From a virus, in IMG/VR virus record IMGVR_UViG_3300025597_000012: a stretch of DNA of 64,000 nt; one strand, written 5' to 3'. The notes beneath the pieces were generated by a model. That model made no database searches, was not told the DNA's origin, and saw nothing but the letters and a program-made list of their open reading frames with translations. Of the stretch, positions 10,901-50,300 are shown in pieces. How positions within the stretch are numbered: the first letter of the stretch is position 1; each line of letters starts with the position of its first letter. The translations under genes were made by a program, and so were the position numbers.

Positions 10901-13858
10901 CGTTCTTATTTGAACATAAGTAATATCTCCATCATCATTAGTAAATGTAAATTCTTCTACTTTAGACGCATCTTTATCTTTATATTCATTTAATTCTTCC
11001 TGTCTTCTTTTTTCTATATCAGCTTTCTTAGCTTCTATATCAGTAGCTTTATTTTTATTTTCAGCTCTTTGAGCTTGTGCTTTCTTAGTTACTTCTGCTT
11101 TTACTTTAGAAGAAACTTTACCTTTTACTTCTTTACCGTTTTTATCAACGGCTGTAACTTCCCCATTAGGTTTAACTATATAAGTCTTACCTTCATTTTT
11201 TACAAGTACGTCTTTAGTTTCTTTCTTAGTTTCAGCAGGTTTAGCCTCAGTAGCTTTAGTAGCTGCTGCAGCTTTAGGAGCTGGTTCATCTACAACGTCT
11301 TCTACATCAGCACCATTAACATCACCGGGTTTAACTTCAGTATCTAAGAAAGGTGATTTATCAAAGTTATCTTCAGCTCTTTGATATTCAGCCATTACAT
11401 CAGCAAAGAATTTATTATATCCGTTCTTATTTGTAAGTTGCTGATAATGATAAATAGCACCATCTGTAGCACTTATAAGTTTAAATCCATCTTGTGCTTT
11501 GTTTAAAATATCATAAGCATCAATAGGATTAATTATTTTTTCATTACTAAAAGTTTTGTTATTAGCATAATAATTTAATAACTCTGTAGCAGTTTTTGTA
11601 TAGTTTCCTTTATAATCATCAGCTAAAGCATCTTTAAGTTCTTCAACTTTTTTATTTAAAAAGTCTCTTTCTTTTGTTTGCTTTTTATATAAATCGGAAT
11701 CCTTATCTTCAACATCTTTTGTTAATTCATCAATCTCTTTAACTCTTTTTTCAAATCTATTTATAGTATCTTGTACACCTTTATCATTAGTTAAATTAAT
11801 TACTTCATCAACATTAGCACCAGTGGATTGAGCTATCTCTGTAGATATTTTAGAAAGTCTTCTTTTATTATCATTAATTTCTGATAAGTTAAGACCTAAC
11901 TGTGTTTTATATTCATCAAATACAAAATAATTATTAGTTCCTTTTTTATAAGGATTAGGGAAAACTTTTTCTACTTTATCAATATTATCTTTAATATCGT
12001 GAGCTTTTTTGATAATATTATCAACAAAAGCATCTGTAGTTTTTTTGTTTTCTTCTGAGAAATTTATACCAAACATATTTTGGAACTCTTCAGGCTTAAG
12101 TTCTTTAAGCATATTAAGTTGTTCCATTCTTAAATCAAAGCGATTAGCTCTGACTCCACTTTCAACAAAGTTAAATAATTGTTGAAATTTAAGATTTTTA
12201 TGTTCAAAAATATCACCTTTAGCTAAAGCTTCATCCATAGAAGACTTAATAGATTGAGCTACTACAGCTTCATCATAAGTATTTCTAAATAAACCAGAAA
12301 GTCTTTGACTATTAAGTAAAGAAACGGCAGAATTAATTATTTGATTTTTTCCACCATCAATACCTTTTCTACGCTCAAGAGCACCTCTACCAACATGAAT
12401 AACAGCACCGCTAAGAATACCTAAGAATACATTCTCAAGACCTTCTCTTGTAGTTAGTACTTCTTTTAATCCTGTTGCTAAAGATTGGGTAAAATTATCA
12501 ACAGTATCAATATCCTTATTAGAGAATTTACGCTTATAATAATCTTCGGCAGTTCTTTGAATTACAAATTGAGAACCTTCTTCAAATCCTTCAGTAAGAC
12601 TTGTAGTTATAGGTCTAGCTATTTTACCTGCTGATTTAAATAAATCAAATTTTGTACTATTCTTTAATGTATTTTCAAATACATCCATAGATGCTTTAGA
12701 TAATGCAATATCCGCATCACTCATTACTTCAGATTGTACTGCTTTTCTAGCTGCATTTGTAGGACTAAATAGTGAACCAAAAATTTGTGAATTTGTAAAA
12801 GTAAGAAGAGCTACGTTAGCAAGCATACCAGCATTACCACCACCTCTTGCATATTCCTTAATCTGTTCTAAATCATAACCAGATGGGTCACGATGATATG
12901 TATTTCTATAATCTTCTGTTAAATTTTTTTCAATATTACGATATGTTTGATTTGCCTCAAATGTACCTTCAGCAATAGCAGAAGTACCTATAGCCAGACC
13001 ATATCTGAATTTATCAACAATATTTTTTGTTTTATTAGCTGCATTTATAGTAGCAAGAAGTTCATCGGCCTTATCTAAAGATTCAATAACAGCAGTTGAA
13101 ACTCTTTTTTCAGCAGTAAAGTATTTTCCTATTTTACCAAAAGCACTCATTATTTGAGAGCTTACTAATGGAACATCACCAACACCTCCAGTTAAAACTC
13201 CAACTACAGCATCTTCAGCAATAGCACCACCAATAGCACCTGCAGTGAAGCCAAGGTTATTTAATAAAGTACTCCAGTTATTAGCAGAACCATTAGTAAA
13301 AGGAATCCAACTAGCAATAGGATGTAACTGATTAGCAGTAGATTGATATGTAGGATGACTTATTTCTAAATTTTCCATCATATCTGCAATAGAATTTGCT
13401 AATTTTCCATTATATGTTTTATCTATATCTCCTGATGATAAAGCATCTAAAGTTTGGGGAACAGCAACAATAGCTTGTGCAAAAGAACCTGTAGTATTAC
13501 CTAAAAATTTTAAAATATTATTTCCCCATGTAGTCCAAGCACTTTGTCTATCACCATATTGAGCTTCTTGATTTGTATTATATGGGTCAAATCCATAAAT
13601 AGGTGACTGATATCTTAGAGTTTGTTCAAGAGGTGTTCTAACAGGCTGATTTATTTCTAAAGAAGATGACCAAGGTGCAGATTCAGTTCTTACTTTATCA
13701 AAGATACTTGATAAGATTTCTTTAGGAGAAGGAGTAACCTGAGCACCCGGAACATTAGGCATAGGCTGAGTATGTAACTCAGGACTAACTAAGTTATTCA
13801 TTCCTGTATTCAGGAAATCCAAGTTTCTGTTATATGTACCATTTGGAACGTCAGGCAT
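1979..13858 (-). CDS. Giant 3959-aa virion-associated polyvalent protein (two zincin HExxH motifs plus an ART-like domain)
   Basis: Single uninterrupted ORF. HELAH lies at nt 6629-6643 and HEYLH at nt 5429-5443. An ART-like segment at nt ~8040-8480 reads GEPMVMFHGT...LFLSPEYDFSEDYA...LAVYEADQVK. The N-terminus is Gly/Ala-rich and hydrophobic, and there is a hydrophobic segment near the C-terminus. K/E/Q/P low-complexity linkers are present. The gene sits in the tail/virion module. Confidence 0.6.
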   Translation of the reverse strand: MPDVPNGTYNRNLDFLNTGMNNLVSPELHTQPMPNVPGAQVTPSPKEILSSIFDKVRTESAPWSSSLEINQPVRTPLEQTLRYQSPIYGFDPYNTNQEAQYGDRQSAWTTWGNNILKFLGNTTGSFAQAIVAVPQTLDALSSGDIDKTYNGKLANSIADMMENLEISHPTYQSTANQLHPIASWIPFTNGSANNWSTLLNNLGFTAGAIGGAIAEDAVVGVLTGGVGDVPLVSSQIMSAFGKIGKYFTAEKRVSTAVIESLDKADELLATINAANKTKNIVDKFRYGLAIGTSAIAEGTFEANQTYRNIEKNLTEDYRNTYHRDPSGYDLEQIKEYARGGGNAGMLANVALLTFTNSQIFGSLFSPTNAARKAVQSEVMSDADIALSKASMDVFENTLKNSTKFDLFKSAGKIARPITTSLTEGFEEGSQFVIQRTAEDYYKRKFSNKDIDTVDNFTQSLATGLKEVLTTREGLENVFLGILSGAVIHVGRGALERRKGIDGGKNQIINSAVSLLNSQRLSGLFRNTYDEAVVAQSIKSSMDEALAKGDIFEHKNLKFQQLFNFVESGVRANRFDLRMEQLNMLKELKPEEFQNMFGINFSEENKKTTDAFVDNIIKKAHDIKDNIDKVEKVFPNPYKKGTNNYFVFDEYKTQLGLNLSEINDNKRRLSKISTEIAQSTGANVDEVINLTNDKGVQDTINRFEKRVKEIDELTKDVEDKDSDLYKKQTKERDFLNKKVEELKDALADDYKGNYTKTATELLNYYANNKTFSNEKIINPIDAYDILNKAQDGFKLISATDGAIYHYQQLTNKNGYNKFFADVMAEYQRAEDNFDKSPFLDTEVKPGDVNGADVEDVVDEPAPKAAAATKATEAKPAETKKETKDVLVKNEGKTYIVKPNGEVTAVDKNGKEVKGKVSSKVKAEVTKKAQAQRAENKNKATDIEAKKADIEKRRQEELNEYKDKDASKVEEFTFTNDDGDITYVQIRTYPDGKRMAYQGIEKNKYGNVNDNSPFEISKEQTTEDYLKVAYSQTSFGKYSKTGERTGEESSLNAYSKKINAKYDAELATLEENTSKEVQTSAGPVTFIDNTPTHETFDSEDVAEIQEGVKEADKKRKGVKTNSIQMVANPSVLFNKINSVNYQDGQKNNDNLRKVLFSKTPQQIYDGLTATVAESTKGLPHGAYQGFKNIPGVYYTGSHTQIELKFEGETIGFLSDADRLYFKRGEKYTPLIEIAPEEYERITGNEPSTYSDFIQQMTDYKALSEHFYSQFKSGKTEFTNQELKALFDIVTSYGGINYSKSESSSTLLKNLTYKGQKGSAILSFPVVYNKENKQYERSTKPTILNKAELSQDEITDIVTYVANNLKNIQSFDRRYLYVMKMPDSTFRHLVARPSAADEKILNEVYNELKNLPNTLTKAQVDKINSELTEKLYIADSRNRDERRTDLKLTVDTQGNIYLNVFNKTVDPENPIHKRVKVNEIKQAKDFDGMVRAIDEKIRKVSYETKSIDKLNLSLAKQDFKSGILNDAEVTQDQLNNSLSIAAQPDVFKQFSLRVFPLQKGQKAAVKPSAPTEAKQEVKPQPKQEPAAAKAVKQARIEEKKIQTPKEEFISIVRENLTDIKEPYKSGIAGSNDEDVFNAVVSQYIDNPEAGKNIFGKKVSDALVRLIPEAAEAEKRAFETVQVAADKKSMAKVMETLFSLKSTQAKAVSEIYDRVATTWALRNGKTKEDFYKSITFRKTTPESLQGSEDTIWQNPSIEQEKAQIKEAAKKNGTFRKAPNGRPSLLDEDTWLLTKTKAFKNWFGNSKVLDVNGEPMVMFHGTPENWSIFDKTQGRGMGLFLSPEYDFSEDYAMVTRGNNVLSLFVKANKPFDYENKQDLAFLKEHNKTIYSRLTGGEDENGNFYLSEEHNWQVLEDKAFQKLIKDNGYDGYYVKEQGIKNLAVYEADQVKDASGRNATFSTENPDIYYQYSNSAMIANVVKGFELQKAKSFGNLAFQTKNGKATPELAKKINKWLADNGYGNTLKFVYEATHGTVNPFINEGNLLFQNQSVESKLRIPVANILENISKIKNPTNFITDISKGLKVFRDGTEFVTEEEYKNQLISNFGRIVDYIDKETLSQFKQIFNLTDAEIEALNGITQQYDSIKVGLSGLWNRFNNGHGGLDKEATLTNIKIGSFVTRLRSILREFNVTDKDIENNSYEDKIINSPFVRDDNVHYILAEASLYKKLLKVDQTETFRKVQDISKLISNITSDEQKVIEDRLSNSIYNQLKNHLNIEGGTNTRTREDKYKGAIQLYNLVKNNLDSVTEDDFDSITEYLEFKNNIEAKLSEIKEQIKKLKNSEHRFTRLLKPTYSGRPEFSDNDLKRNDTSKIANWTNVQFNQGPKGAIRLLGDSQAIIYSLTNPDVSTPLHELAHYWEGQLTDTERADVLEWAGTEDWSRETSEKFARGFEKYLADGEAPTSTLQKLFDNFKKWLTDIYKGIVGSDIDVTLNDSMKKIYAAMLGEKYETVIKEEVKTEQEEEKKVEEAQAEEPAPVPTKAITRKELSIRTTGDGLVEIKHNGTLINTIDEFDGAWYDEAGDAIGLNKDEAIQSIIDKLNAGNTQEKEITPAQETETQQTEPVEQQTEEQPQPEEERIPEVFTKEDVGSKVMYNGKELTVTEVNEGLDKETPFGTVKGTTFVTITDGTKYGEQIVASDKLTKVAPEIQEETEEPFDEGVLKEIVIPKSYDTDYSENHKTEYGKQNEPFTVSTEDEDNLTVDYVGLKVILEHLKQKYNIPYQVVDVDEDWKGKFENSVAVINLSRVSRDTPFHEYLHPFMAVLKVDNHALYTSLMEEYKALVLENDDIAGEAMSETLKSPLYKGKNKEEIQDEALVNYLGKLGARNFDRTGRFLYDKYHKSGASLARKFFDWFVSVLSGFYGALKANVKGAKAGEQGVAKIKYLPAMNLAEFADLTSSNGMPFDFTERKDLITAVKAFQADATEKTDDQKLIERIKRRLAVLDDTARRRTPSPELLSELIAVRSLLKNYDEFESINQYIYQGIDGLRYASDEFKRISGKLSDKENKLTQKDVKQLHRDLDLVRNLLAMYEDVHGLFGRVAQDLAPEAYKAMQITLAEARNIADYKIKARSIDLTAEWLFPYIEEVNERIKDKYPSYVLTKEQFKNKLYNADEDLSFLQFHLGSVGSNNDPVSAITRTALFDVMEDNHLYEAKLGEEIKIDYAKFLKAKGLANETKSTVEYYKKNFLRKATILQKTEEKDDEGKFKWAYTQKWALHQPYFYDLYTKDKAAFLETLGEMPDAPSENSTAAERALYQNYVDKIFAWEEQNGSLSKPADKYKNAEFDRLYNKDEFFTKMYDTYKEGNDKYGEEERLQFGIVPQVFDKPSQIQDVKTAEGAGNKAKVVGNKVLNFFLPKAEESTTAQNDINLDGSMYKRIKTPYVQSIDDSNVSLVLPETIFKFAGAANLVEMMREVEPNVRTLRMVLEGNAQFKMEARKIIPVTSDRKTIFDRFLKLPSKKTTAERLNKQLLSWLDDVVYGQEELQDTARIFGRAVDLNKLGGNFAFLTALNNMAFNVTAGIGNVSIGNIMTLGESLGAKYYTPADWRKAQGQYFSNFNEFMKDAFNLKKSKITQLGIKYDAIQGEFRDKYGKKFVGNATQRYANADTIFIINHAAEHQIQLVGMLSLMNATKVKTTSGETISLFDAHKINEKGFLRLRDDIIWTAEDERLFTQRLHGVNKILNGNYSKFDKVQLQRTFYGKLMLIYRKFMYNAFRSRYGRQRFDYEIGDEMEGYYRKFFSKVASDIKEMKFNAAANFFNRKGWSADEKYAYNKTMFELSLLVGMGILTIALANASGDDKDKSWLQNTLTLQMLRLRKDIGMYSIFGATDIMQVLQNPSAVILTATRYTDFFTQLVTNPTEVYKRKTGAFDKGDSILKAKLFKAIPIVRQAVNMMQPEEQLQYYRLLNKY

Positions 13859-27384: not shown

Positions 27385-27484
27385 ATTAATTAAATAAAGT
27401 TATTTTGAATAGAGCTTTTTAGCGGATTCTCCGCTAAGGTACGAAAAATTAGGCACATACAGAAATGAGTAACCATAATTAATT

Positions 27485-27512
27485 AAAAAAGCCCCATCTA
27501 AAAAGATGAGGC
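27485..27512 (-). terminator. Intrinsic terminator after the metallophosphoesterase gene
   Basis: Minus strand reads GCCTCATC-ttttta-GATGGGGC followed by TTTTTT. Confidence 0.6.
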
Positions 27513-27543
27513 TTACCTGCAAAGTCCCTGTCCGAATCGGGGA

Positions 27544-28815
27544 TTATATCGTGTATGTATATTCTGCTATTAGTCCTTCTTCAGGATGGAATAAGAAGGC
27601 TTTTGCTTGCTTAAGGCTAGCATATCCTTTTCCGGCATGCCAAGCATCGGTTCCACTTAAAGATGGCATAATTTGAATCTGGAAGCCCGGATGCGTGTCC
27701 ACAGATACGAAGTTTGTCTTCTTCTGTTTATGGAAGTGTCCAAGTTGACAGAATCTATACTTAGTACCTGCCCATAAAATAGGCTGCTCTGTGGCAAAAA
27801 TAAGCCCTAAATCAAGGTGTTTTTCACGGTCACCGTGTGTAAACTGGAAACCGTTTTTACCGTATTTGTAATACTTTCTAAGTTTAGGGGCATTATTAAC
27901 GGAGACATTAGGATTCTTGGAATACCAAGCATCTAAGATTTCTCCTATAAGGAATGTAACTGTTGTGTCGTGGTTACCCGGAACAATGAGAACATCAACC
28001 GGGGCTATAAGACTAAGTTCATCAATAGTTTCTATAAGAACCCTTTTTACAGTGGTTACTATTTTATGGAAACGTGTGTCTGCGTCTTGGGGTGTACCAG
28101 CAAAAGTCGTATTTACAATATTATCTACGTGTACCAAGTCATTACCTACAGGGAACAAAATCTTGCGTACAAGCTTGAGATTCACTCTTTTAAGTAGTTC
28201 TCTAAGTGCTGTTTTAAATCTTTTCTCAGCTATTTTAAGGTCGTAATCTTCACCTGTTTCATTCTTATGAGCAAGTTTACCAAAGTGAATATCAAATAAG
28301 CTGATTTCAAGGAGAGATTCTCTATCTTGTTCCTGATTATAGTCTATAGCTTCATAGATAGGAGCATGTTTCTTTAACTCACTGATAATCAATTCCTTCT
28401 GTTTACCAAGGTCAGTATCAAGTTTTCTACGCTCAAGTTTAGCTTTTACTTGGAATAAAGGTTCTACTGTAATAGTTCCATCATCAAGTTTTGCACCAAC
28501 CTCCCATTTGTTACATTCCCATCTTACTATATTCCACTCTTCAGTATCAATATTACATACTCTGATAAGGTCTTCAAGAGTAACAATTCTTTCTTTTACA
28601 AGACTTGTTATTTCAGTAATATCACCTTTAGCTACAAATTGTGATTTTGTTGCTTCATTTTCTACTAAGCCACTTTCTCTGAGTCTTCTATAAATTCTTC
28701 TAATAGTCTCAGTAGGCACTCCAAAATGATTAGCTGCTTTTGCATAGCAGTTGTTTTTTGAACGGTCTACAGGATTTTTTAAAAGATATTCTTTTATTTC
28801 TCTATTTTTTATCAT
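27544..28815 (-). CDS. HTH + calcineurin-like metallophosphoesterase
   Basis: The N-terminus is HTH-like (AANHFGVPTETIRRIYRRL). Phosphoesterase motifs GNDLVHVDN, VPGNHD and GHFH are present. Confidence 0.55.
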   Translation of the reverse strand: MIKNREIKEYLLKNPVDRSKNNCYAKAANHFGVPTETIRRIYRRLRESGLVENEATKSQFVAKGDITEITSLVKERIVTLEDLIRVCNIDTEEWNIVRWECNKWEVGAKLDDGTITVEPLFQVKAKLERRKLDTDLGKQKELIISELKKHAPIYEAIDYNQEQDRESLLEISLFDIHFGKLAHKNETGEDYDLKIAEKRFKTALRELLKRVNLKLVRKILFPVGNDLVHVDNIVNTTFAGTPQDADTRFHKIVTTVKRVLIETIDELSLIAPVDVLIVPGNHDTTVTFLIGEILDAWYSKNPNVSVNNAPKLRKYYKYGKNGFQFTHGDREKHLDLGLIFATEQPILWAGTKYRFCQLGHFHKQKKTNFVSVDTHPGFQIQIMPSLSGTDAWHAGKGYASLKQAKAFLFHPEEGLIAEYTYTI

Positions 28816-29213
28816 AAGTTTTTATTTAAAATTACCCAAATAATAGTAGCTATTACAAAGAAAATACTCTTTTTAAAAGCACCATGCTTTCCAAATATTT
28901 TAATAAATATCTTATCAAACAAAGCTGTACTTCCTAAGTAAGTTACTGACAAGCCTGCCCACTTATTAAAAGCAATATCAAAAACTGCTAATCTAATAAG
29001 TAATGATGTTATTGGTACCTGCCAATATTGATGTGAATAATAAGCAAGTACTCCTGTAAATAAAGCGGCTAGTGCTACACCATCTCTATGCCATCTTTTA
29101 ATCCTCTTAAAATCAAGAGCATCAGCCGTATTTTTATCTTTGAGAAGAAAAGATGTTGCGTCTTTTCCTGCTAAAAATAAAGTAAAAATTAAAAGTAATA
29201 AGCCTTCTGTCAT
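28812..29213 (-). CDS. Multi-pass membrane protein
   Basis: Several hydrophobic segments. 4-nt overlap with its neighbour. Confidence 0.4.
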   Translation of the reverse strand: MTEGLLLLIFTLFLAGKDATSFLLKDKNTADALDFKRIKRWHRDGVALAALFTGVLAYYSHQYWQVPITSLLIRLAVFDIAFNKWAGLSVTYLGSTALFDKIFIKIFGKHGAFKKSIFFVIATIIWVILNKNL

Positions 29214-29473
29214 TATGCTTTGTAATAATCAATAGCTATTGCTATAAGAGAAACTATCCATAGAACGATTGCTACATAAGCTAATTTTGTTGTATCAAGT
29301 TTCCAAAAGGAAATATTCTCTTTGGATTCATGTACACCAAGAACATCGTTAGTATAAGAACCAGATTTTGAAGCTTTAAAAGACTGATATAAAAATATAC
29401 CAGTTATTAATGCAAAAACAGCAGATACACCTAAAGTGAGTCCACCAGTTTTAAAAAGATTAAGTAATGTCAT
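29213..29473 (-). CDS. Small two-TM membrane protein
   Basis: Two hydrophobic helices in 86 aa. Confidence 0.4.
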   Translation of the reverse strand: MTLLNLFKTGGLTLGVSAVFALITGIFLYQSFKASKSGSYTNDVLGVHESKENISFWKLDTTKLAYVAIVLWIVSLIAIAIDYYKA

Positions 29474-29490
29474 ATTTTGAGTTTTAAATT

Positions 29491-29520
29491 AAAAAAGAAA
29501 AGGGTAGGGAAACCCTACCC
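29491..29520 (-). terminator. Intrinsic terminator
   Basis: Perfect 8-bp stem GGGTAGGG-ttt-CCCTACCC followed by TTTTCTTTTTT on the minus strand. Confidence 0.7.
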
Positions 29521-29528
29521 TTAATCAC

Positions 29529-29696
29529 TTAGTTAGACAAATCTTTAATATAACGTCTCTTTACATTTACAAGAGAGCGTTTAACTTGACGAGCAGTTCT
29601 TTCAGAAACACCGAAGTTTTCAGAAAGCCATGAATCGCCTTTTTTCAGATAAGAAGGTTTTGTCTTAAGAATGTTTGTAAAATTTGTGATTGTCAT
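29529..29696 (-). CDS. Small basic DNA-binding-like protein (55 aa; start trimmed to MTITNF)
   Basis: The track ORF starts at 29717, but a -7 box (TACATTTG, 29715-29722) overlaps that start. The next ATG is at 29696. Confidence 0.35.
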   Translation of the reverse strand: MTITNFTNILKTKPSYLKKGDSWLSENFGVSERTARQVKRSLVNVKRRYIKDLSN

Positions 29697-29714
29697 ATTG
29701 ATTAATTTATACAG

Positions 29715-29746
29715 CAAATGTACGACCTTTTCGCCATATAAAAAAA
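29715..29746 (-). promoter_or_regulatory. Bacteroidota-type promoter (weak -33)
   Basis: Minus strand reads TTTT-N20-TACATTTG. Confidence 0.35.
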
Positions 29747-29777
29747 TTTATTAAGTTAAAAGACTGTTAAAGGAAAG

Positions 29778-29802
29778 AAAAAAAAAGGGCGTAGAAACGC
29801 CC
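29778..29802 (-). terminator. Intrinsic terminator after the collagen-like gene
   Basis: GGGCG-tttcta-CGCCC followed by T9 on the minus strand. Confidence 0.65.
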
Positions 29803-29846
29803 GGTAGAAGGAAAACCAATATAACCTTTCTACTATCTTTAATTAC

Positions 29847-30782
29847 TTATACTAGAGTTCCTATGTAATAAGTAAATGTAAACCAATATGTTTCAGCTAC
29901 ACCTGTACCTATTCCTACAGCATAAAATTCAGCTAAATCATCAGCGGCTCTTGCTCGTATAGCAAAGCCTGCTCCTGAGTTACTACCATTACTACAAGCA
30001 GTTCCACCACAGTTTTCTTCTGCTGTAAAATTGGCAGCAATAGGTAAGCTAATTGTCATTTTTGTAACAGTTCCTGCATTTGTAAATACTAATCTAAATC
30101 TACCACTAACAGTAACTACATTACCAACTCTTAAATACTGACATTGGTATGCTGTTGTACTAGTTACGTTACCATCACCAGCTAATGTAGGTGTATATGT
30201 TCCAGCATCTAATGAAAATGAAGGGGATGTTCCAGAGGTACCTGCTGTACCAGAAGTACCGTGTGTTCCAGATGTACCAGAAGTTCCAGCGGCACCATTA
30301 ACTCCTGAAGTTCCGTTTGCTCCAGATGTGCCAGAAGTTCCAGCAGCACCGTTCACTCCTGAAGTTCCAGCAGCACCGTTCACTCCTGAAGTTCCAGCAG
30401 CACCATTTACACCAGATGTTCCATTAACTCCTGATGTTCCTGATGTTCCATTTGAACCAGCAACACCTGCAGCAGAAGTACCTGATGTACCATTTATGCC
30501 CGATGTACCATTACGTCCAGAAGTACCTGATGTACCACTAAAATTATCACCTATTAAGTCATCAATTTTTTCAAGAATTTGCTCAACAGTTGATAAATTA
30601 GGCATTGCAATATTGTTCAGTTTTGTTGGTTTATCATCTTTAGAATGATAAATAACACACTGAGAATCAATTTGCTCTATACATATATTCTGTTCGGTAC
30701 ATTGTTCACAATAGGGAACTTGTGGTTCAGAAATAGTAACTACGCTGCCTCCGGGTAATTCATTGCAATTTAAACAGCTCAT
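29847..30782 (-). CDS. Collagen-like repeat fibre protein with Cys-rich N-domain and globular C-domain
   Basis: GTSGTSGRNGTSGINGTSG...GAAGTSGVNG repeats. The N-terminal block QCVIYHSKD...ILEKIDD is paralogous to the protein at 30793..31254. Confidence 0.7.
   Translation of the reverse strand: MSCLNCNELPGGSVVTISEPQVPYCEQCTEQNICIEQIDSQCVIYHSKDDKPTKLNNIAMPNLSTVEQILEKIDDLIGDNFSGTSGTSGRNGTSGINGTSGTSAAGVAGSNGTSGTSGVNGTSGVNGAAGTSGVNGAAGTSGVNGAAGTSGTSGANGTSGVNGAAGTSGTSGTHGTSGTAGTSGTSPSFSLDAGTYTPTLAGDGNVTSTTAYQCQYLRVGNVVTVSGRFRLVFTNAGTVTKMTISLPIAANFTAEENCGGTACSNGSNSGAGFAIRARAADDLAEFYAVGIGTGVAETYWFTFTYYIGTLV
30232..30540 (-). repeat. G-X-Y triplet coding repeat
   Basis: The shadow ORF 30328..30648+ (PEVPAAPFTPEVP...) is its antisense reading. 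Confidence 0.75.
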
Positions 30783-30792
30783 TTATTATAGT

Positions 30793-31254
30793 TTAGGCGG
30801 GAGTTATCGTAATTTTATAAATTACGTTATTTAAATTTATATGAAGTTCTGATAAGTCGGTTCTAAACCAGTATTGTCCGGGTTTAGAATCACTAAGTGT
30901 ACCATCAATATTTCCTAAATAAAAGGAGTTTTTAATATTACATAGTTCTGTGTCAACTGCTTGTATGAATTGTTGTAGGGTATTTACAACATAGTTTTGT
31001 CTTAAACAAGGCAAATCAAAATCAATTACATTAAGTTGTTTTATTTTTTCATCTATACTTTCTATTACAAGTTCTAGTGTTGCACCATTTGATAAATTTA
31101 ATCCATCAAGTTCAGATACAGCACTATTGCTTTTGTGATAAATCACGCAATCAAAGTCAAGTTGTACGGGACATCCACAATTTGTATTGTAGCTATAGTT
31201 TCCACAACTACATGAATTACATGAATTTCCGCATCTGTTACAATAACAAGACAT
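30793..31254 (-). CDS. Cys-rich fibre-associated protein (paralogue of the fibre N-domain)
   Basis: MSCYCNRCGNSCNSCSCG..., then DCVIYHKSN...VIESIDEKI, shared with the N-terminus of 29847..30782. Confidence 0.5.
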   Translation of the reverse strand: MSCYCNRCGNSCNSCSCGNYSYNTNCGCPVQLDFDCVIYHKSNSAVSELDGLNLSNGATLELVIESIDEKIKQLNVIDFDLPCLRQNYVVNTLQQFIQAVDTELCNIKNSFYLGNIDGTLSDSKPGQYWFRTDLSELHINLNNVIYKITITPA

Positions 31255-31271
31255 TATATATTATTTTAAAA

Positions 31272-32369
31272 TTAAGAATAACAAGGGCCATTATTTGATA
31301 CTACTATATAACTTCCAAGAGGAACTATTCTTGAACATACAGTGTATTGTTGATATTCAGCTACAAATATGGATAAAGGTGCGCTTGTAGTGCAATCTTC
31401 CCATTCTAAAGTAGTTCCACCAGCGTTTGCTTGTATAGTATATGAGTTACAAGTACTAGATGAAACACAAGCATTACAATTAAGAAGAACACTCCAGTTT
31501 CCACTACCAATAGCAAAACCTGTAAAGGTATATACTCCTGCACCGCTATAATCTTGGCATTGTGATACACCGTTGCTATCAGTAACTGTTATAGAGCCTG
31601 CTATACCATCAGCAAATACAAGTAATGTACCTACAGAAGGAGTATTAGCAGTTGTTATAAATGTATTTCCAGAAGTTACTGGGAATGAACCACTTGATGC
31701 TGTAACAGATAATCCATTAAATTTAACATCTGTAATTCTACCAGTTGTTACACAATTTGAATTAGATATAGTACCTACACCACCAGCTACTCCAGAAGTA
31801 CCTGTTGTTCCAGATGTTCCTGAAGAACCTGATGTTCCGTTTGCTCCAGATGTTCCACTATTTCCAGAAGTACCAGAAGTACAATTACATCCAGAAGTAC
31901 CAGATGTTCCACCTCCACCACCATTTTCAATTAAATCACAAATAGCGTCTCTAAAAATAGATAAAATACTTAATAAAGAATAAGTATTTGTTCCTTGAAG
32001 ACAAGGTACTCCTTGAGGAGTAAGACATTTTAAATCTAAAGTTATAAGAGAAGAACCTATATTTAAATCACCAAGGGCTGTTTCTAAATAAGAAAGTCTT
32101 GTTCTTAAATCACAAATTTTATCTATTTCTTCTTGATGTAATTCTTTAATAGTTCCTGTAGCAGGAGTAAAATTAAAGCATTTTGCATCAATATCTGTTA
32201 AATTAGTTCCATCAAATAATTCTTGTAATTTATCATTTGTTAAATTCAATACGTCATCTAACATTGCATCACAATCAAGTGAATCTGCATTTATAAAAGA
32301 TGGTACTACTCCTGTAAAGAGTACGCAACCACTTGGAAAAATATTACCGCAAAATGTTTTGTTACCCAT
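31272..32369 (-). CDS. Collagen-like repeat fibre protein
   Basis: A central GGGGGTSGTSGCNCTSGTSGNSGTSGANGTSGSSGTSGTTGTSG block lies between Cys-containing N- and C-terminal domains. Confidence 0.65.
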   Translation of the reverse strand: MGNKTFCGNIFPSGCVLFTGVVPSFINADSLDCDAMLDDVLNLTNDKLQELFDGTNLTDIDAKCFNFTPATGTIKELHQEEIDKICDLRTRLSYLETALGDLNIGSSLITLDLKCLTPQGVPCLQGTNTYSLLSILSIFRDAICDLIENGGGGGTSGTSGCNCTSGTSGNSGTSGANGTSGSSGTSGTTGTSGVAGGVGTISNSNCVTTGRITDVKFNGLSVTASSGSFPVTSGNTFITTANTPSVGTLLVFADGIAGSITVTDSNGVSQCQDYSGAGVYTFTGFAIGSGNWSVLLNCNACVSSSTCNSYTIQANAGGTTLEWEDCTTSAPLSIFVAEYQQYTVCSRIVPLGSYIVVSNNGPCYS

Positions 32370-32381
32370 TATAAATTTTAT

Positions 32382-32675
32382 TTAACACTTTCCTAAGTTA
32401 ATTAGAGAAAGAATAATTCCATTAATTTCGTCAAGTTGTTTTTTAAAAGGACAAGCATCACCTGTATTTATTGCAGAATCAACTGTTCCTATTGCAAAAT
32501 TTATTTTATATTTTTGTATGTTTAATTGGTCAAATAAATTATTAGTTCTTATACATTCTAATTTAGCTTTCCAAATATACATCAATTCTATAGTATAATC
32601 GCAAGTACTTATAGCTGATTGATTTGTATTAGATACAGGTGCTGATACACTAAATGCTGAAGCACAACCACACAT
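32382..32675 (-). CDS. Small Cys-containing hypothetical protein
   Basis: ORF in the fibre cluster. Confidence 0.35.
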   Translation of the reverse strand: MCGCASAFSVSAPVSNTNQSAISTCDYTIELMYIWKAKLECIRTNNLFDQLNIQKYKINFAIGTVDSAINTGDACPFKKQLDEINGIILSLINLGKC

Positions 32676-32676
32676 A

Positions 32677-33228
32677 TTAGCAAGTTTGCGTTAATTTATT
32701 TAATGTTTTATTTACTAATGAACTTGCTTTTTGGTAAAGTGTTGATGCTTTTTTAACATTTCCTAAAGCCGCATTACTTTTACCAGATTCAATAGCCAAA
32801 ATAATATCAATTATATTATTTTTAAGTTTTATATCTCTTTCAATATCACAGTCAGATAAATCTAAATATTCATATATTTTTGCAAGTCTATTTTCTAAAT
32901 CTACTGTTCTTAAGTGATATTTTTGAATATATACTTCTTCATACGGACATACTTTAAATTTTAATTTCCAAACACCATCTGGTAAATCAGCTAAATCAAA
33001 AGTATTTAATGTTTCTGTTAAACCTATGGTATTAGAATTAAATGTATTTATTTTTCTTGCTGATACATTTAATAAAAAATATTTTGTATATCCCGGAAGT
33101 GTAACTTCTAAAAGAGGACTTTCAGGTTCTTTATAATACTGAGAAGAATCTAAAAATACTAATGTTCTAGGATTCTTTGTTTCAAGTATTTCAAAATCAA
33201 GTAAATGATGTTTTACTCCTAAACTCAT
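32677..33228 (-). CDS. Hypothetical protein (183 aa)
   Basis: ORF packed between the lysis and fibre genes. Confidence 0.4.
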   Translation of the reverse strand: MSLGVKHHLLDFEILETKNPRTLVFLDSSQYYKEPESPLLEVTLPGYTKYFLLNVSARKINTFNSNTIGLTETLNTFDLADLPDGVWKLKFKVCPYEEVYIQKYHLRTVDLENRLAKIYEYLDLSDCDIERDIKLKNNIIDIILAIESGKSNAALGNVKKASTLYQKASSLVNKTLNKLTQTC

Positions 33229-33229
33229 G

Positions 33230-33739
33230 TTATAAATTTAAATAGTGTGTACCGGGAATAAAATCTTTATTTTTATATTTGTTTAAAAGAGTACTAATAG
33301 AATAACCAAAAGATTTTTCAAAGTGAGGATAATCCTTCCATGATGCTCCCCAAGTCCAGCCATATTTGAGAAATATTTTAACTACTTCCATCCAGTCAAT
33401 AGTATTGTCTTTGTCTATGTCTGTATTTCTATCCCAAATAATTTCATCTCCAGAAATATGACCATCATTATTTTTATCACTTATAAGACAAAAATCTATA
33501 GCTAGTCCGTAATTATGATAAGATTTTCCACCGGGCGCATCTGTTACTTTAGGGCCTGGTTTAGTTCTACCTTGAGCATATAGAGCATCTTGTTCTTCAA
33601 AAGTTCTAAATACCTGAACAAAACGACAACCTAGATTTCCTCCTAAAACTGAACAAATTTCATCATATATCTTTAAAAGTTCATCTTTAAGTTTAGGATG
33701 AATATATTGTATTCTGTCTATTGTTACTTTATCTTTCAT
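33230..33739 (-). CDS. Endolysin, peptidase M15 (VanY/L-Ala-D-Glu peptidase-like)
   Basis: QGRTKPGPKVTDAPGGKSYHNYGLAIDF...WGASWKDYPHFE carries the SxHxxGxAxD and D..H zinc-ligand motifs. Confidence 0.75.
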   Translation of the reverse strand: MKDKVTIDRIQYIHPKLKDELLKIYDEICSVLGGNLGCRFVQVFRTFEEQDALYAQGRTKPGPKVTDAPGGKSYHNYGLAIDFCLISDKNNDGHISGDEIIWDRNTDIDKDNTIDWMEVVKIFLKYGWTWGASWKDYPHFEKSFGYSISTLLNKYKNKDFIPGTHYLNL

Positions 33740-34014
33740 TAATCTACAATTTTTTCGTCACTATTAGTTGTTTCACAATGATTCTCATTAAAGTTTTCAG
33801 TTTCTTTAACTATTTGAGACTTAAGAAATTGTCTTATAAAACCTTCAATAGCTCCGGGAGCAAGCAATAGAATACTACCAGTGATAAGTCCAGCAACACC
33901 CTGCCAAACAAAGTCTATATCCTTTGTCCAGATGAGTACTAATGTTATTACCATTGTAATAGTACCTACTATACTTGTAATCCATCCTTTTACTATATTT
34001 GTTTGTACTGACAT
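33739..34014 (-). CDS. Holin candidate (2 TM)
   Basis: 91 aa with two hydrophobic helices and a charged C-terminus, immediately upstream of the endolysin. Confidence 0.45.
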   Translation of the reverse strand: MSVQTNIVKGWITSIVGTITMVITLVLIWTKDIDFVWQGVAGLITGSILLLAPGAIEGFIRQFLKSQIVKETENFNENHCETTNSDEKIVD

Positions 34015-34322
34015 TATTTTATAACAAATTTGAGAATAATCTCCAGACCAGCTATAAGAACTCCAACAAATATCATATTTCTTTGTTGTCTTTTTTCTGA
34101 TTCATCCTGAAGTTTTTTATTAATAGCCATTTCTGTTTCCAGTTGTACTATTCTTTTTGCCTGCTCTGCTAATTCTTTTTGTGTTGTATTGTTTTTTCTA
34201 TAATCATCGAACTCCGTTCTCAAATTATGTAATTCTCTATAAACAAGCTTTAACAATTCCTTTTCAGTGTATTCTGAAGGGTTAAAAATATCTTCCATAG
34301 CCATTTCTAAAACTTTATCCAT
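34014..34322 (-). CDS. Tail-anchored coiled-coil membrane protein (lysis accessory?)
   Basis: Coiled-coil N-terminal part and a single C-terminal TM segment (MIFVGVLIAGLEIILKFVI). Confidence 0.3.
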   Translation of the reverse strand: MDKVLEMAMEDIFNPSEYTEKELLKLVYRELHNLRTEFDDYRKNNTTQKELAEQAKRIVQLETEMAINKKLQDESEKRQQRNMIFVGVLIAGLEIILKFVIK

Positions 34323-34332
34323 TTTTTAAATT

Positions 34333-34638
34333 TTAGGCACAATATACACACTTATTTACAAATATTTCAAGAACAGTTTTAGCTCTGTTTAAAGAAGCTC
34401 TATTAGCAGCGGTATTAGGCATACCATTAATATACATTTTTACTGCTCTAGTCAATGTATTATCTCTAAATGTATGAATATCTACAGGGCCAGTTCCTTC
34501 ACAACATGAAGGATTAAGCTTCTCAGAAATTAATGTGATTGCTTTTTGTATATAAACAAGTGCTACTTTACGTCTAGCAAATTGTCTAACATAAGAATTT
34601 ATAAATACCTCCAGAGGAGATTTTTTTAATACTGCCAT
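34333..34638 (-). CDS. Hypothetical protein (101 aa)
   Basis: ORF. Confidence 0.35.
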   Translation of the reverse strand: MAVLKKSPLEVFINSYVRQFARRKVALVYIQKAITLISEKLNPSCCEGTGPVDIHTFRDNTLTRAVKMYINGMPNTAANRASLNRAKTVLEIFVNKCVYCA

Positions 34639-34651
34639 TTTTGTATTTATT

Positions 34652-34692
34652 AAAAAAGGTGGGTAGGATTCTTGTTAAACCCAAACCCACCT
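34652..34692 (-). terminator. Intrinsic terminator after the 630-aa structural gene
   Basis: AGGTGGGT...ACCCACCT stem followed by TTTTTT on the minus strand. Confidence 0.6.
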
Positions 34693-34714
34693 TTGTGTTA
34701 GAAAATTATTACTA

Positions 34715-36607
34715 TTAGAGAACTACAGGTTCTATATTGATATTAGCACTTGAGATGTATCCGTTAACTGCGGCCTCAAAGTTTTTACCTTGACCAGCAG
34801 GGAAGAATACATGAAGATGATAACTATCAGTATATTGCTCTGACCATCCACCTACTTTATAAGAGAAGTCAAATTCAAGCACATACTCATCGTAGTATTT
34901 GTTCGGGTCAGCTTGGAAGCTATATCCTTCAACTTCTCTGATTACAGGGTCAAAAGAACGCTCTTTTAAAGCATAGCTCTTAGACTCTTTTTCAAGTTTT
35001 CTCACATTAGCTCCAAATCCAGCAGGATGTTGGTAAGCTTGGAGTTTCTTAACAGCCCATGCATCTTCTGTAGGAGCTGCGTTGTAATCAGGATTAAAGT
35101 TAGATACCTGAATATGAATTGTTTCTGCTTCGTAAGGGAAGTAATCAAAAGTACATTCACCTGTTACACGATTTACAAAAGCAACTTCAAGTTTAATACC
35201 ACAAAGACAAGTACCTTCGTCTGCAAGTGTAGTATCTGCTTTCCATTCAACTCCTTCAAATGCTTGAGGAATAGTCCATACTAAATCATCCTTAGAACAT
35301 CCTGCTTTTACTGCATTAGAGTAAACGGTTGTGCTATATGTGTGAACACATGAACCACTAGCATTTACAACAGCTACTGTAAGGTTAGGATAAGCTGCTT
35401 GAATATCAGTAAGACGATTTGTTCCACAAACGCTATCAGCGATTGTAAGTTTAAAAGTTTTACCGTATTTAGTTACAGTACCTGCTCCAAGCCATGCTGT
35501 AGTTGTCGGAGAAGTAAGAACACAAGAGTTTCTAGCTTTACCAAGGAATACAACAGTGTCTGTACCAGAAGCGGTAAGAGCAGTTGTAGAAACTACAACA
35601 TAAGTGGAAGTACCAAACTCATAACTTACTCTTGAAGCAACTTCATCACCAGTAAGACTATAATCAGATTTGAATGTAGTTAATGCACCAGCACTACCAG
35701 CATCAAGTCTTGAAATTTTGTAAGCAAATCCACCAGTTACTAAACTGTAACCAGAAGGACAAGTATCACAATCAGGAACGATTGCAATAGCACTGTTTGA
35801 GAAAGAAGTAGGAGTAGAGTTTGTATCTTTAACTACTTGATATACAGATAGATTTCCTTCAATACCTACTCTTTTTACTACATCATTAGGATATTGTGCT
35901 TGAACAATTCCAAGAGCAATATCATCTTTGGTATCACAAATTCTAAGCTCAAATACATAGTCTGTATCAGTTGTTCCTGCTACGGGAGCAGTACATTGGC
36001 TGATAACACTAGCTTTGATAAGAGGTTGTTTACCATAAGGTTGAGTACCGATAAGCGGGTCAGAGTTGATTTGTTTTACCAAATCAGCAGCTATTAGGCG
36101 GCAATCAACACTAGCACAAGGGTCATCACAATCAGGTGATGTACTACGAACAACTGTAGAGAATTGACGAGTAATACCTTGTCTTGAGAAAAGTTTGTCA
36201 ATAGGGCCACCAGTTAACTTGATATACAAGTTTTTGATTTCACCCGGTTTAGCAAATAAAGTGTTTGTATCAGTTACATCACCAGTGTTACCTACAGCCC
36301 ATACTTCTGTTTGACCAGTTTTTGCTGCTTTACCTCTAAAGTTTTTAAGAAGTTTCCCTTTAATGAGTTTTGAATACTCATTTTCATTAGGAACTCCTGA
36401 CATTAAAGATTTGTTAGGAACATCGGGTGTACCCCATACTAACTGAAATGCTTTTGTTGTCGCATAAGTGGGAGAAGTCAATCCTTTGTGGGTCTTGGCA
36501 TCTACAAAGCCAACTTGACCTACAGCGATGCTCTCAACGGTTGCGCCTTGTGCGAGTAAGGCAGGGTTGTTTGTAACGAACACCTGTCTGAACGATTCGT
36601 GAGCCAT
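34715..36607 (-). CDS. Abundant-looking beta-rich virion protein (630 aa; role unassigned)
   Basis: S/T/G/A/V-rich ORF with its own strong terminator, located three genes downstream of the MCP. It could be a sheath, a major tail protein or a capsid accessory protein. I cannot tell which. Confidence 0.4.
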   Translation of the reverse strand: MAHESFRQVFVTNNPALLAQGATVESIAVGQVGFVDAKTHKGLTSPTYATTKAFQLVWGTPDVPNKSLMSGVPNENEYSKLIKGKLLKNFRGKAAKTGQTEVWAVGNTGDVTDTNTLFAKPGEIKNLYIKLTGGPIDKLFSRQGITRQFSTVVRSTSPDCDDPCASVDCRLIAADLVKQINSDPLIGTQPYGKQPLIKASVISQCTAPVAGTTDTDYVFELRICDTKDDIALGIVQAQYPNDVVKRVGIEGNLSVYQVVKDTNSTPTSFSNSAIAIVPDCDTCPSGYSLVTGGFAYKISRLDAGSAGALTTFKSDYSLTGDEVASRVSYEFGTSTYVVVSTTALTASGTDTVVFLGKARNSCVLTSPTTTAWLGAGTVTKYGKTFKLTIADSVCGTNRLTDIQAAYPNLTVAVVNASGSCVHTYSTTVYSNAVKAGCSKDDLVWTIPQAFEGVEWKADTTLADEGTCLCGIKLEVAFVNRVTGECTFDYFPYEAETIHIQVSNFNPDYNAAPTEDAWAVKKLQAYQHPAGFGANVRKLEKESKSYALKERSFDPVIREVEGYSFQADPNKYYDEYVLEFDFSYKVGGWSEQYTDSYHLHVFFPAGQGKNFEAAVNGYISSANINIEPVVL

Positions 36608-49204: not shown

Positions 49205-49741
49205 TTAACTTCCTAACTCATTGTCTAACAGACGTAAAGCTATTTTATCTGTACCAAAGGCAGCTAATCTATCCATAAGATTTTGAGTCTTTTCATGCTC
49301 TTCTATTTGTTCTTGTAAATATTTCATACCTAAAGTATAGAGCATAAAATCTGCTTCTTTTAAAGCATTAGCTGTCAATTCTTTACATTGCTTAGTTATA
49401 TCAATTTCATGTTGATAAGACTGTTTAATTATATCCGGTAAACCTGCAAATGTTTGTTTAGGTGAGTCTAGTTTTGGAGTTTCAGGTTGAACACCCATAG
49501 CTAAGAGATACTCTCTAGACCATTCTGCGTGTTTTAGCTCTTCCTCTGAATATTTTCTCCAAAGCTTTGCTGAACCTAGATAACCATTATTATTTAACCA
49601 CAGACTCATGGCTAAATATAGACGAGAAGAAAGCTCCTCTTGTTGGATTCTATTATTTAAAAATTGAACACATTTATTAGATAATAGTTCATTTTTACCT
49701 GTAAGGGAAATAGAATCTGTAGTTTTAAAATTAAGTTCCAT
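49205..49741 (-). CDS. Ferritin-like iron-storage protein
   Basis: IQQEELSSRLYLAMSLW...GSAKLWRKYSEEELKHAEW...SYQHEIDIT...LQEQIEEHE reproduces the spacing of ferroxidase-centre E/H residues in bacterial Ftn (compared from memory with E. coli FtnA). Confidence 0.7.
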   Translation of the reverse strand: MELNFKTTDSISLTGKNELLSNKCVQFLNNRIQQEELSSRLYLAMSLWLNNNGYLGSAKLWRKYSEEELKHAEWSREYLLAMGVQPETPKLDSPKQTFAGLPDIIKQSYQHEIDITKQCKELTANALKEADFMLYTLGMKYLQEQIEEHEKTQNLMDRLAAFGTDKIALRLLDNELGS

Positions 49742-49754
49742 TAAAAATTTTTCA

Positions 49755-49786
49755 CAAATATAACACTTTTTTGTGAAATTACCAAA
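49755..49786 (-). promoter_or_regulatory. Bacteroidota-type promoter of the ferritin gene
   Basis: Minus strand reads TTTG-N20-TATATTTG, 13 nt before the ATG. Confidence 0.65.
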
Positions 49787-49790
49787 TTTG

Positions 49791-49875
49791 TGAGAGTGGC
49801 TGGAGTCGAACCAGCACCCTTGCGGGACTACAGTTTTACAGACTGCTCCACCTAACCGATAGGTAGCTCACTCTC
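49791..49875 (-). tRNA. tRNA-Tyr(GUA), class II
   Basis: Anticodon loop CTGTAAA, variable arm CCC-GCAA-GGG and perfect acceptor GAGAGTG/CACTCTC. Confidence 0.8.
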
Positions 49876-49881
49876 AAATAG

Positions 49882-49967
49882 CGGAAACGAAAGGACTCGA
49901 ACCTTCAACCCAAATTAACGAGTAACGGTTTAGCAAACCGCTGCAGTACCATTATGCTTACGCTTCC
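49882..49967 (-). tRNA. tRNA-Ser(GCU), class II
   Basis: Anticodon loop TTGCTAA, long variable arm and T-arm GAAGG-TTCGAGT-CCTTT. Confidence 0.7.
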
Positions 49968-49972
49968 AATAG

Positions 49973-50056
49973 CGGTAGAGACAGGAATCGAACCTGTACG
50001 GCTATTACACCTTCATGGTTTTCAAGACCAATAAGCCCTCTCATTTGCGCTCTACC
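49973..50056 (-). tRNA. tRNA-Ser(UGA), class II
   Basis: Acceptor GGTAGAG/CTCTACC, anticodon loop CTTGAAA and long variable arm. The D-stem is weak. Confidence 0.6.
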
Positions 50057-50062
50057 AATATG

Positions 50063-50148: not shown

Positions 50149-50153
50149 ATATG

Positions 50154-50237: not shown

Positions 50238-50240
50238 AAT

Positions 50241-50268: not shown

Positions 50269-50300
50269 TTTGAGGTTAAAGACCGTAGTCTAAAACAAGT

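Follow-up and report, generated by a model that had tools for sequence, protein, structure and literature searches.

Collagen-like fibre proteins and a collagen-type glycosyltransferase (GT) are encoded in the same 64,000-nucleotide (nt) stretch of viral DNA (IMG/VR record IMGVR_UViG_3300025597_000012; hereafter, the window), and the question that this locus raises is whether the phage glycosylates its own fibres. The enzyme is of the PLOD/LH3 (lysyl hydroxylase 3) type, a glucosyltransferase fold known in animal collagen and in mimivirus, and its gene lies next to that of a second GT of family GT2. An earlier note, made from the sequence alone, had suggested that the pair modifies the Ser/Thr-rich collagen-like fibres of the phage. 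That suggestion is not supported by the analysis presented here, and we lean slightly toward the view that the window contains two independent modules, i.e., the fibres and a two-gene GT cassette, and not one system.

The downstream gene of the cassette (53860 to 54504, minus strand) encodes a stand-alone PLOD/LH3-type GT of 214 amino acids (aa) that consists of the catalytic GT-A domain alone. It scores 112 bits against the Pfam family PF25342, GT_PLOD (cut-off 27; E = 3.5e-32), and its residues 2 to 206 cover positions 4 to 227 of the 246 in the profile. The closest solved relatives in a phmmer search of the PDB are mimivirus R699 (1.6e-16) and human LH3 (1.7e-16), and the DxxD, E..W, LNxG, and HGNG motifs align with both; the likeness to LH3 that the earlier note had seen in the stretches LDTYDI, AEKGCWP, YLNGGACF, and IIHGNGKT was thus correct. 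The Mn2+-binding DxxD (D64-T-Y-D67) and the C-terminal H199 are present and invariant in 22 homologues. Mutagenesis of R699 has assigned the residues K62, E114, W118, N138, D162, D163, Q164, H216, and N218 to the binding of the donor glucose and the acceptor sugar (PMC12279948). E114, W118, N138, D163, Q164, H216, and N218 correspond to E92, W96, N116, D142, Q143, H199, and N201 of the window protein, which are invariant or nearly so in the 22 homologues, while K62 is probably kept as K44, with a one-residue shift at the edge of the alignment, and D162 is replaced by N141. The conservation of these residues makes it very likely that the 214-aa protein is active as a retaining glucosyltransferase, with a sugar and not a bare amino acid as its acceptor.

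The N-terminal GT domain of human LH3/PLOD3 (PDB accession numbers 6fxk and 6wfv) belongs to the same Pfam family, and the chemistry expected of the window enzyme is retaining transfer from a uridine diphosphate (UDP)-sugar with Mn2+. LH3 has in addition accessory and lysyl hydroxylase domains, whereas the window GT is without both. R699, the mimivirus collagen galactosylhydroxylysyl glucosyltransferase (PDB accession number 9dyt), is viral and is the best solved match, but its solved chain of 458 residues forms a dimer with a collagen-binding cleft, and the window GT is half that size. R699 converts free glucose to kojibiose, so its acceptor is essentially a hexose (PMC9546862, PMC12279948). 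The GT_PLOD profile matched 3,465 cluster representatives at E <= 0.001 and 1,578 at E <= 1e-10; the close homologues of the window protein and most of the best 150 matches are of approximately 210 to 230 aa with no further domain, and most of these 150 fall within 205 to 235 aa. The stand-alone PLOD-type GT was not found in any cultured phage of the collection searched, and a scan of the GTDB genomes with it gave no match.

The upstream gene (54501 to 55289, minus strand) overlaps the PLOD-type gene by 4 nt and encodes a 262-aa glycosyltransferase of the inverting family GT2 (PF00535, 34.3 bits; cut-off 23.3). Its true start is the ATG at 55289, since the homologues begin there and a longer 5' extension would overlap a tRNA-Glu gene. 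The D99/D101 and D194/D195 pairs are invariant among 28 sequences, and the AlphaFold2 model (predicted local distance difference test score [pLDDT], 93.9) shows a standard GT-A fold. The Foldseek neighbours of this model are polypeptide GalNAc-transferases, an archaeal mannosyltransferase, TarS, TarP, RmlT, and hyaluronan synthase. Since all of these classes score at about E = 1e-9, the predicted fold does not tell protein, teichoic acid, and polysaccharide acceptors apart, and a sequence search of the PDB with the GT2 gave no match. The GT2 has 1,723 homologues; it was not found in any cultured phage of the collection searched, and a GTDB scan returned only four contigs of metagenome-assembled genomes (MAGs; Chitinophagia, Chitinophagaceae, Obscuribacter, and one further bacterium), which are probably binned phage DNA.

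The earlier note had described the two GTs at 53860 to 55289 as neighbours, and this pairing proved to be conserved well beyond the window. The two genes are adjacent in every genomic context read; a PLOD-type gene is present in 65 of 80 IMG/VR loci that encode the GT2, at a distance of 1 kb or less in 62 of the 65 and overlapping or within 50 nt in 43 of them. Both activities are joined in one polypeptide of 506 aa (P0308), which is 45% identical to the window GT2. Fusions of GT25 with GT_PLOD are known elsewhere among the matches and mirror the order of the collagen galactosyltransferase and glucosyltransferase steps. These GT25 fusions support a division of labour between a first-sugar and a second-sugar enzyme, with the GT2 in the role of GT25. 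The GT_PLOD fusions observed in metagenome proteins (P0308, P0420, P0360, and P0343) include ones with GT2 and with GT25 as well as a GT11+GT10+GT25+GT_PLOD protein of 1,781 aa, and 14 of the 65 IMG/VR loci encode a phage GT_PLOD+Methyltransf_24 fusion of approximately 420 to 455 aa.

The cassette sits exactly between two genes of a 21-gene tRNA array that extends over 48.4 to 56.9 kb of the window. The tRNA-Glu gene (55304 to 55379, minus strand) forms its 5' flank, and the tRNA-Asp gene (53801 to 53874, minus strand) overlaps the last 15 nt, at the 3' end, of the PLOD-type gene. In Leptolyngbya phage Lbo-JY46, which is the closest cultured relative (78% identity of the major capsid protein, with the same gene order), the equivalent slot of the tRNA array holds a homing endonuclease, and no GT is present anywhere in the genome. 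Because the slot is filled by the GT cassette in one phage and by a homing endonuclease in the other, the tRNA array seems to be a site into which mobile genes insert. The cassette is also absent from contig 3300043403_000051 in the regions read. The phages that carry it have only the two GT genes in common with the window, at 44 to 65% identity, and the pair of GT2 followed by PLOD-type GT is thereby shown, at the level of sequence comparison, to be a mobile accessory cassette that has spread among unrelated phages.

Most of the carriers are phages of approximately 35 kb in which the genes follow the order of a sigma-like regulator, a GT-B, a small membrane protein, GT2, PLOD-type GT, Methyltransf_24, TerS, TerL, and tail genes. 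These comparative loci span ±10 kb and were retrieved by pattern around one of six anchors (the GT2, tail protein c8, the major capsid protein, TerL, an RNaseH-like protein, or the portal), so that some relatives were missed. The cassette is present in only 4 of the 21 adequately covered loci of the ~35-kb group. Judged from gene content, the glyco-module of GT-B, GT2, PLOD-type GT, and methyltransferase is an accessory block at the early/late junction of these phages that is either on or off. The group itself is uncultured and very large; L216 and approximately 60 similar IMG/VR loci have a fixed gene order, and at least 595 relatives of the tail protein occur in IMG/VR. Two longer metagenome contigs, of 113 kb and 202 kb, contain an enlarged glycan locus around the GT2 and PLOD-type genes (L141, 4634 to 11781; L143, 400 to 6128). 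The additional genes encode a polysaccharide pyruvyl transferase, a Glyco_transf_7C GT, an Rce1-like protease, a PglD-like acetyltransferase, a PhyH-type 2-oxoglutarate (2OG) oxygenase, and a DegT aminotransferase, and the oxygenase beside the PLOD-type GT echoes the domain pairing of LH3.

The other module consists of three genes, all on the minus strand, that the earlier note had picked out for Gly-X-Y runs dominated by G-T-S. The runs are confirmed, with 178, 34, and 10 triplets, respectively, although the third is weak. The largest of the genes (1 to 1979, with its ATG at 1979) encodes a 781-aa protein, of which the 5' 659 codons are within the window and the rest was read from the source contig. 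A short N-terminal segment is followed by three G-T-S/G-x-N collagen-like regions that are split by two globular inserts of approximately 95 aa; the longest unbroken run is of 92 triplets, and the match to Pfam Collagen is at E = 1.4e-70. In the DNA of the window, the runs of this gene lie at 1809 to 1880, 1749 to 1802, 879 to 1706, and 69 to 590. The second gene (29847 to 30782) encodes a 311-aa receptor-binding fibre (Pfam Collagen, 8.7e-14) with a Cys-rich N-terminal anchor (approximately residues 1 to 80), a collagen-like stalk (DNA positions 30225 to 30536), and a C-terminal β-sandwich head (residues 190 to 306). The third (31272 to 32369) encodes a 365-aa protein with 10 clean triplets (31785 to 31874), which scores 18.9 bits on Pfam Collagen, under the cut-off of 27.2, and is thus only weakly collagen-like. 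It is composed of an N-terminal module of approximately 150 aa, a G4 stretch, a short G-T-S stalk, and a distal domain of approximately 170 aa, and its N-terminal module occurs as a stand-alone protein of 151 to 156 aa in relatives.

Between the second and third genes, a 153-aa protein (30793 to 31254, minus strand) has the Cys-rich anchor domain and no collagen region. As had been noted before, this 'CVIYH...ID.KI' domain is common to the first two proteins of the cluster, namely, the 311-aa and 153-aa proteins (36% identity over 44 aa; pairwise E = 2e-7), and its homologue in Lbo-JY46 is the N terminus of the protein annotated as the tail fiber protein. The fibre genes also match tail fibre PHROGs. 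In all relatives, the variable fibre slot is bordered upstream by two conserved genes of 97 and 183 codons (32382 to 33228 in the window, minus strand), the latter of which matches the PHROG 'virion structural protein'.

Among the 222 triplets of the three proteins, G-T-S accounts for 100, followed by G-V-N, G-I-N, G-V-S, and G-I-S, so that Thr is at the X position and Ser or Asn at the Y position. The triplets contain no Lys and no Pro, and only 8 of the 666 repeat residues are charged; the repeats are thus without the Pro/hydroxyproline, and poor in the charged residues, that stabilise the helix of collagen triple-helix proteins. Contrary to the earlier note, the triplet DNA is not near-identical among the three genes, since the longest exact strings in common are of 15, 18, and 20 nt. 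Because exact identity between the fibre genes does not exceed 20 nt, the idea that the repeats promote recombination between fibres is weak.

In the AlphaFold model of the 311-aa protein, only residues 190 to 306 are predicted with confidence (pLDDT of approximately 90). This head matches, at E = 3e-4 to 1e-2 and a probability of 1.0, the receptor-binding heads of reovirus sigma1, Listeria phage PSA, and the lactococcal phages p2 and TP901-1, and the earlier assignment of the genes as fibre genes accordingly holds; a sequence search of the PDB with the head gave no match. The heads of p2/TP901-1, PSA gp15, and sigma1 have the same β-sandwich fold as the C-terminal domain of the 311-aa protein and stand atop a trimeric stalk, although the identity is only 13 to 18% and their stalks are a coiled coil or a β-spiral, in contrast to the collagen-like stalk in the window. 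By analogy with these trimeric relatives, the fibre would also form a trimer. Many proteins that lack collagen bear the same head, a homologue with the same anchor and head (P0186) has only approximately 10 triplets, and the orthologues in the close relatives L308, L464, and L465 keep the anchors on stalks that are not collagen-like. The fibres are therefore modular, with a conserved N-terminal anchor, an exchangeable stalk, and a distal binding head, and the collagen-like stalk is one interchangeable spacer. In the proposed arrangement, these would be trimeric receptor-binding fibres of a crAss-like phage in which the Pro-free, Lys-free G-T-S/G-x-N stalk serves as a spacer of variable length.

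A comparable layout of an N-terminal anchor, a variable Thr-rich collagen-like region, and a C-terminal trimeric β domain is found in BclA and other bacterial collagen-like glycoproteins, and BclA is O-glycosylated on Thr. The repeats of BclA are G-P-T, with Pro present and Thr at Y, whereas those in the window have Thr at X, Ser or Asn at Y, and no Pro. Furthermore, BclA has a C1q-like C-terminal domain, in contrast to the viral-type receptor-binding head in the window, and no PLOD-type GT is used in its glycosylation. Membership of the window fibres in the BclA family was rejected on the basis of the triplets (G-T-S, G-V-N, and G-I-N) and of a head that is not of the C1q/TNF type.

If the cassette acted on these stalks as the LH3 system acts on collagen, its acceptor would be a galactosylated hydroxylysine. 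LH3 works on hydroxylysine derived from Lys at the Y position, together with a lysyl hydroxylase and a GT25 galactosyltransferase (COLGALT). In the window, the 222 triplets hold no Lys to hydroxylate, and a galactosyl-hydroxylysine acceptor is therefore impossible in the stalks. No 2OG oxygenase was found either by Pfam annotation or by phmmer with the oxygenases of Synechococcus phage S-CAM9 in the window and 20 kb of its flanks, which was the range of all searches of this genome. The partner of the PLOD-type GT is a GT2 of PF00535 and not a GT25 of PF01755. The window differs in the same way from mimivirus, the collagens of which carry Lys and which has the hydroxylase L230. The cassette is moreover separated from the two fibre clusters by 22 kb and 52 kb.

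The distribution of the two features points in the same direction. No Gly-X-Y run of five or more triplets was found in any of 80 loci with a cassette-type GT2 (1.13 Mb of IMG/VR sequence) or in any of 80 tail-protein loci of the ~35-kb phages, which included cassette carriers and of which 33 had at least 6 kb downstream. Likewise, no collagen-like run was found in the cassette-bearing contig 3300031787_000409, which was scanned over 80% of its 36 kb. Long G-T-S fibres occupy the same fibre slot in 6 of 63 phages that are related to the window by the capsid protein; the cassette was not found in the three of these six contigs (L370, L373, and L374) in which the ~10 kb upstream of TerL was read, and neither GT was found in the ~10 kb upstream of TerL in any of 80 loci of the capsid-related group. 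Such repeats are common in viral contigs, with a (GTS)x4 DNA pattern in at least 120 IMG/VR contigs, and there was no cassette carrier among the 80 of these contigs listed. The best 120 of 987 matches to the fibres show no overlap with GT carriers, which is weak evidence. Overall, the cassette and the collagen-like fibres appear to assort independently, with a thin sampling of close relatives.

A case in which a PLOD-type GT does lie beside a collagen-like fibre is provided by S-CAM9, the only cultured phage that matches the window PLOD-type GT. Its gp218-gp222 locus (positions 27398 to 36254 of record NC_031922.1; L486) encodes the tail fiber protein gp222, with a collagen-like run of 59 triplets in which Gly-X-Lys is abundant. 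Downstream of gp222 are a 124-aa open reading frame (ORF; gp221), two 2OG-Fe(II) oxygenases, and a protein of 613 aa that combines GT25 and GT_PLOD domains and the C-terminal stretch of which resembles a 2OG oxygenase by eye (HTD…H motif), with no Pfam match. The GT_PLOD domain (7.5e-47) is 31% identical to the window protein, and S-CAM9, like the window phage, encodes collagen-like fibre proteins. In S-CAM9, however, the domain is fused to GT25 and accompanied by oxygenases near a Lys-rich fibre, whereas in the window it is paired with a GT2, with no oxygenase found, no Lys in the stalks, and no adjacency to the fibre genes. To judge from its genes, S-CAM9 apparently has a complete hydroxylase, galactosyltransferase, and glucosyltransferase set for collagen modification beside its likely substrate, in a cultured phage; no published description of this gene set was found.

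For the cassette, we infer which sugars are used, in what order the enzymes act, and what the acceptor is, as follows. The GT2 would act first and place a hexose on an acceptor hydroxyl, and the PLOD-type GT would then, with Mn2+ and UDP-glucose and in a retaining manner as in LH3 and R699, add glucose alpha-1,2 to that hexose; the product is probably a Glc-alpha-1,2-Hex disaccharide on an acceptor that many phages have in common. The best explanation is that the acceptor is not collagen-specific. As a tentative candidate, a reasonable one that we would stop short of calling probable, the acceptor may be Ser/Thr on late-made virion proteins, which in the window phage could incidentally include the fibres. 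This class of acceptor is favoured because the cassette shares its strand and place with packaging and late genes, because phage GTs glycosylate virion proteins in mycobacteriophage Che8, and because S-CAM9 links the PLOD-type enzyme family to phage fibres. In the Che8 type of system, phage-encoded GTs glycosylate the capsid proteins of their own virion (Freeman et al. 2023, as cited in PMC11256854). Che8 is a precedent for the acceptor class, but the hosts and phage lineages differ, and its targets are capsid proteins and not fibres; the link of the cassette to this type of system is contextual only, through its location on the same strand beside packaging and late genes. The targets in Che8 also include tail-tube subunits, and its cassette includes an O-methyltransferase, which parallels the GT-B, GT2, PLOD-type GT, and Methyltransf_24 of the ~35-kb carriers.

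Several observations weigh against the separation of the two modules and toward the suggestion of the earlier note, which can be set out as a model in which the GT2 attaches an O-linked sugar to Ser/Thr in the G-T-S stalks, the PLOD-type GT extends it, and the glycan decorates and perhaps stabilises Pro-free triple helices, as glycosylated Thr does in BclA or worm cuticle collagen. The window has both features, and the two best-read close relatives, Lbo-JY46 (whole genome) and 3300043403_000051 (regions read), have neither; this both-or-neither pattern, at n = 3, is compatible with a coupling of cassette and fibres. In the closest cassette carrier, a 131,721-bp IMG/VR contig reached via a locus that is 100% identical to it over 11.7 kb (L462), only the start of the fibre slot is covered: the orthologue of the 365-aa protein is collagen-free, and those of the 311-aa and 781-aa proteins lie beyond the locus. 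The tail fibre genes of many other carriers are likewise outside the ±10-kb loci. The stalks are extremely rich in Ser and Thr and without Pro, with 211 Ser and Thr residues in the repeats of the 781-aa protein alone, and would be an obvious substrate. Polypeptide GalNAc-transferases, which act on Ser/Thr, are among the best structural neighbours of the GT2, and in animals and mimivirus the PLOD-type GTs serve collagen. In S-CAM9, a distant PLOD-type GT adjoins a collagen-like tail fibre, so the family can be fibre-linked in phages. Nevertheless, the acceptor known for the family is missing, with no Lys and no hydroxylase found, and the genes are 22 to 52 kb apart. The cassette is widespread in phages without a collagen-like run in the DNA read, G-T-S fibres are present in relatives that lack it upstream of TerL (three of six contigs) and their repeats are common in IMG/VR, and the GT2 match is a generic GT-A one in which TarS, TarP, RmlT, and hyaluronan synthase score equally. 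A fibre-directed cassette is hence unlikely. It is distinctly unlikely that the pair is a widespread module for O-glycosylation of phage virions that here puts Glc-alpha-1,2-Hex on Ser/Thr of the Pro-free stalks; if it were, the stalk glycans would supply the triple-helix stability and the resistance to proteases or grazing that otherwise come from hydroxyproline or glycosylated Thr, and the collagen glucosyltransferase fold would be used independently of hydroxylysine.

The same GT2 neighbours, among them the wall teichoic acid GTs TarS, TarP, and RmlT and polysaccharide synthases, would also suit a cassette that modifies a host molecule, such as a wall polymer, a host protein, or the undecaprenyl-linked precursor of an envelope glycan, for superinfection exclusion, receptor masking, or host takeover. 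The prophage enzyme TarP modifies teichoic acid; the cassette is accessory, mobile, and moron-like, PHROG places the partner GT-B in 'moron/auxiliary', and the larger loci hold sugar-nucleotide tailoring genes (PglD-like, DegT, and pyruvyl transferase) that are typical of surface polysaccharide pathways. On the other hand, neither enzyme, each small and soluble, shows a membrane segment in its sequence, the carriers look lytic and have the gene among late/packaging genes on the same strand, and no match was found in genomes of cultured bacteria, the four MAG contigs being the only hits; we regard such a host target as very unlikely. An accessory and mobile character is equally that of anti-restriction genes, and phage GTs are classically DNA-modifying, so the pair might glycosylate phage DNA bases against restriction, e.g., a hydroxymethylated pyrimidine with a second sugar as in the gentiobiosyl-hydroxymethylcytosine of T2/T6. 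One carrier (L007) has the cassette amid genes for Endo VII, a methyltransferase, and ribonucleotide reductase. However, the known phage DNA GTs are of the GT-B fold and are encoded together with a thymidylate synthase-like hydroxymethylase or 5hodCMP synthase, a dCTPase, and a kinase (PMC13326640). No ThyA-like ORF was found in the 80 GT2 loci or in the window and its flanks, with an approximate query sequence and the limited sensitivity of phmmer, and the PLOD-type GTs characterised so far use sugar acceptors attached to protein, which together leave DNA modification highly improbable. DNA glucosylation of the T-even, RB69, or DLP3 type was rejected because both GTs are GT-A and because that approximate query, with its limited sensitivity, gave no ThyA-like ORF.

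The window belongs to a large phage genome of low GC content (34%), and its sequence recurs without change in a metagenome contig of 118,377 bp; nearly all genes are on the minus strand. The structural set is crAss-like, with a P22-type portal, TerL, a major head protein, and crAss tail ring proteins 1 and 2. The recorded host of Lbo-JY46 is the cyanobacterium Leptolyngbya, yet the structural genes of the phage are crAss-like, and the only GTDB matches of the cassette include MAG contigs of Chitinophagia (Bacteroidota), in contrast to the cyanobacterial host of Lbo-JY46. Directly upstream of the 781-aa fibre gene, with overlapping start and stop, is a 3,959-aa polyvalent-protein ORF with an ART-PolyVal (ADP-ribosyltransferase) domain (1979 to 13858, minus strand). 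Beyond window position 1, downstream of the 781-aa gene, further fibre-like genes were observed (L138, 24243 to 31677). They encode a 320-aa protein in which Gly/Ala/Thr runs make up most of the sequence, a lipoprotein-like esterase of 345 aa, a 291-aa protein that matches Pfam ArabFuran-catal weakly and was interpreted as lectin-like, and a paralogous pair of 388 and 395 aa. Within the tRNA region, a ferritin-like gene and the genes of two K319L-like proteins with PKD/Ig domains (647 and 133 aa) lie at 49205 to 52780, with the packaging genes on one side and the GT cassette on the other. At the other end of the window (60000 to 64000), the GC fraction climbs from approximately 0.33 to 0.44, the genes flip to the plus strand, and the ORFs called are without a Pfam match; this part is probably the edge of another, perhaps early, module.

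The value of these results lies in parting a tempting inference from names, that of a collagen enzyme and a collagen-like fibre, from what the distribution of the genes shows. A minimal PLOD-type enzyme of 214 aa proves to be common in uncultured phages, and in the phage loci read it is nearly always found with one particular GT2, often with a methyltransferase and a GT-B, and usually by the packaging genes. S-CAM9-type cyanophages are the place to study a real phage pathway of collagen hydroxylation and glycosylation. For the cassette itself, knowledge of its acceptor would expose either a general system of virion glycosylation in phages or a new modification of host or DNA.

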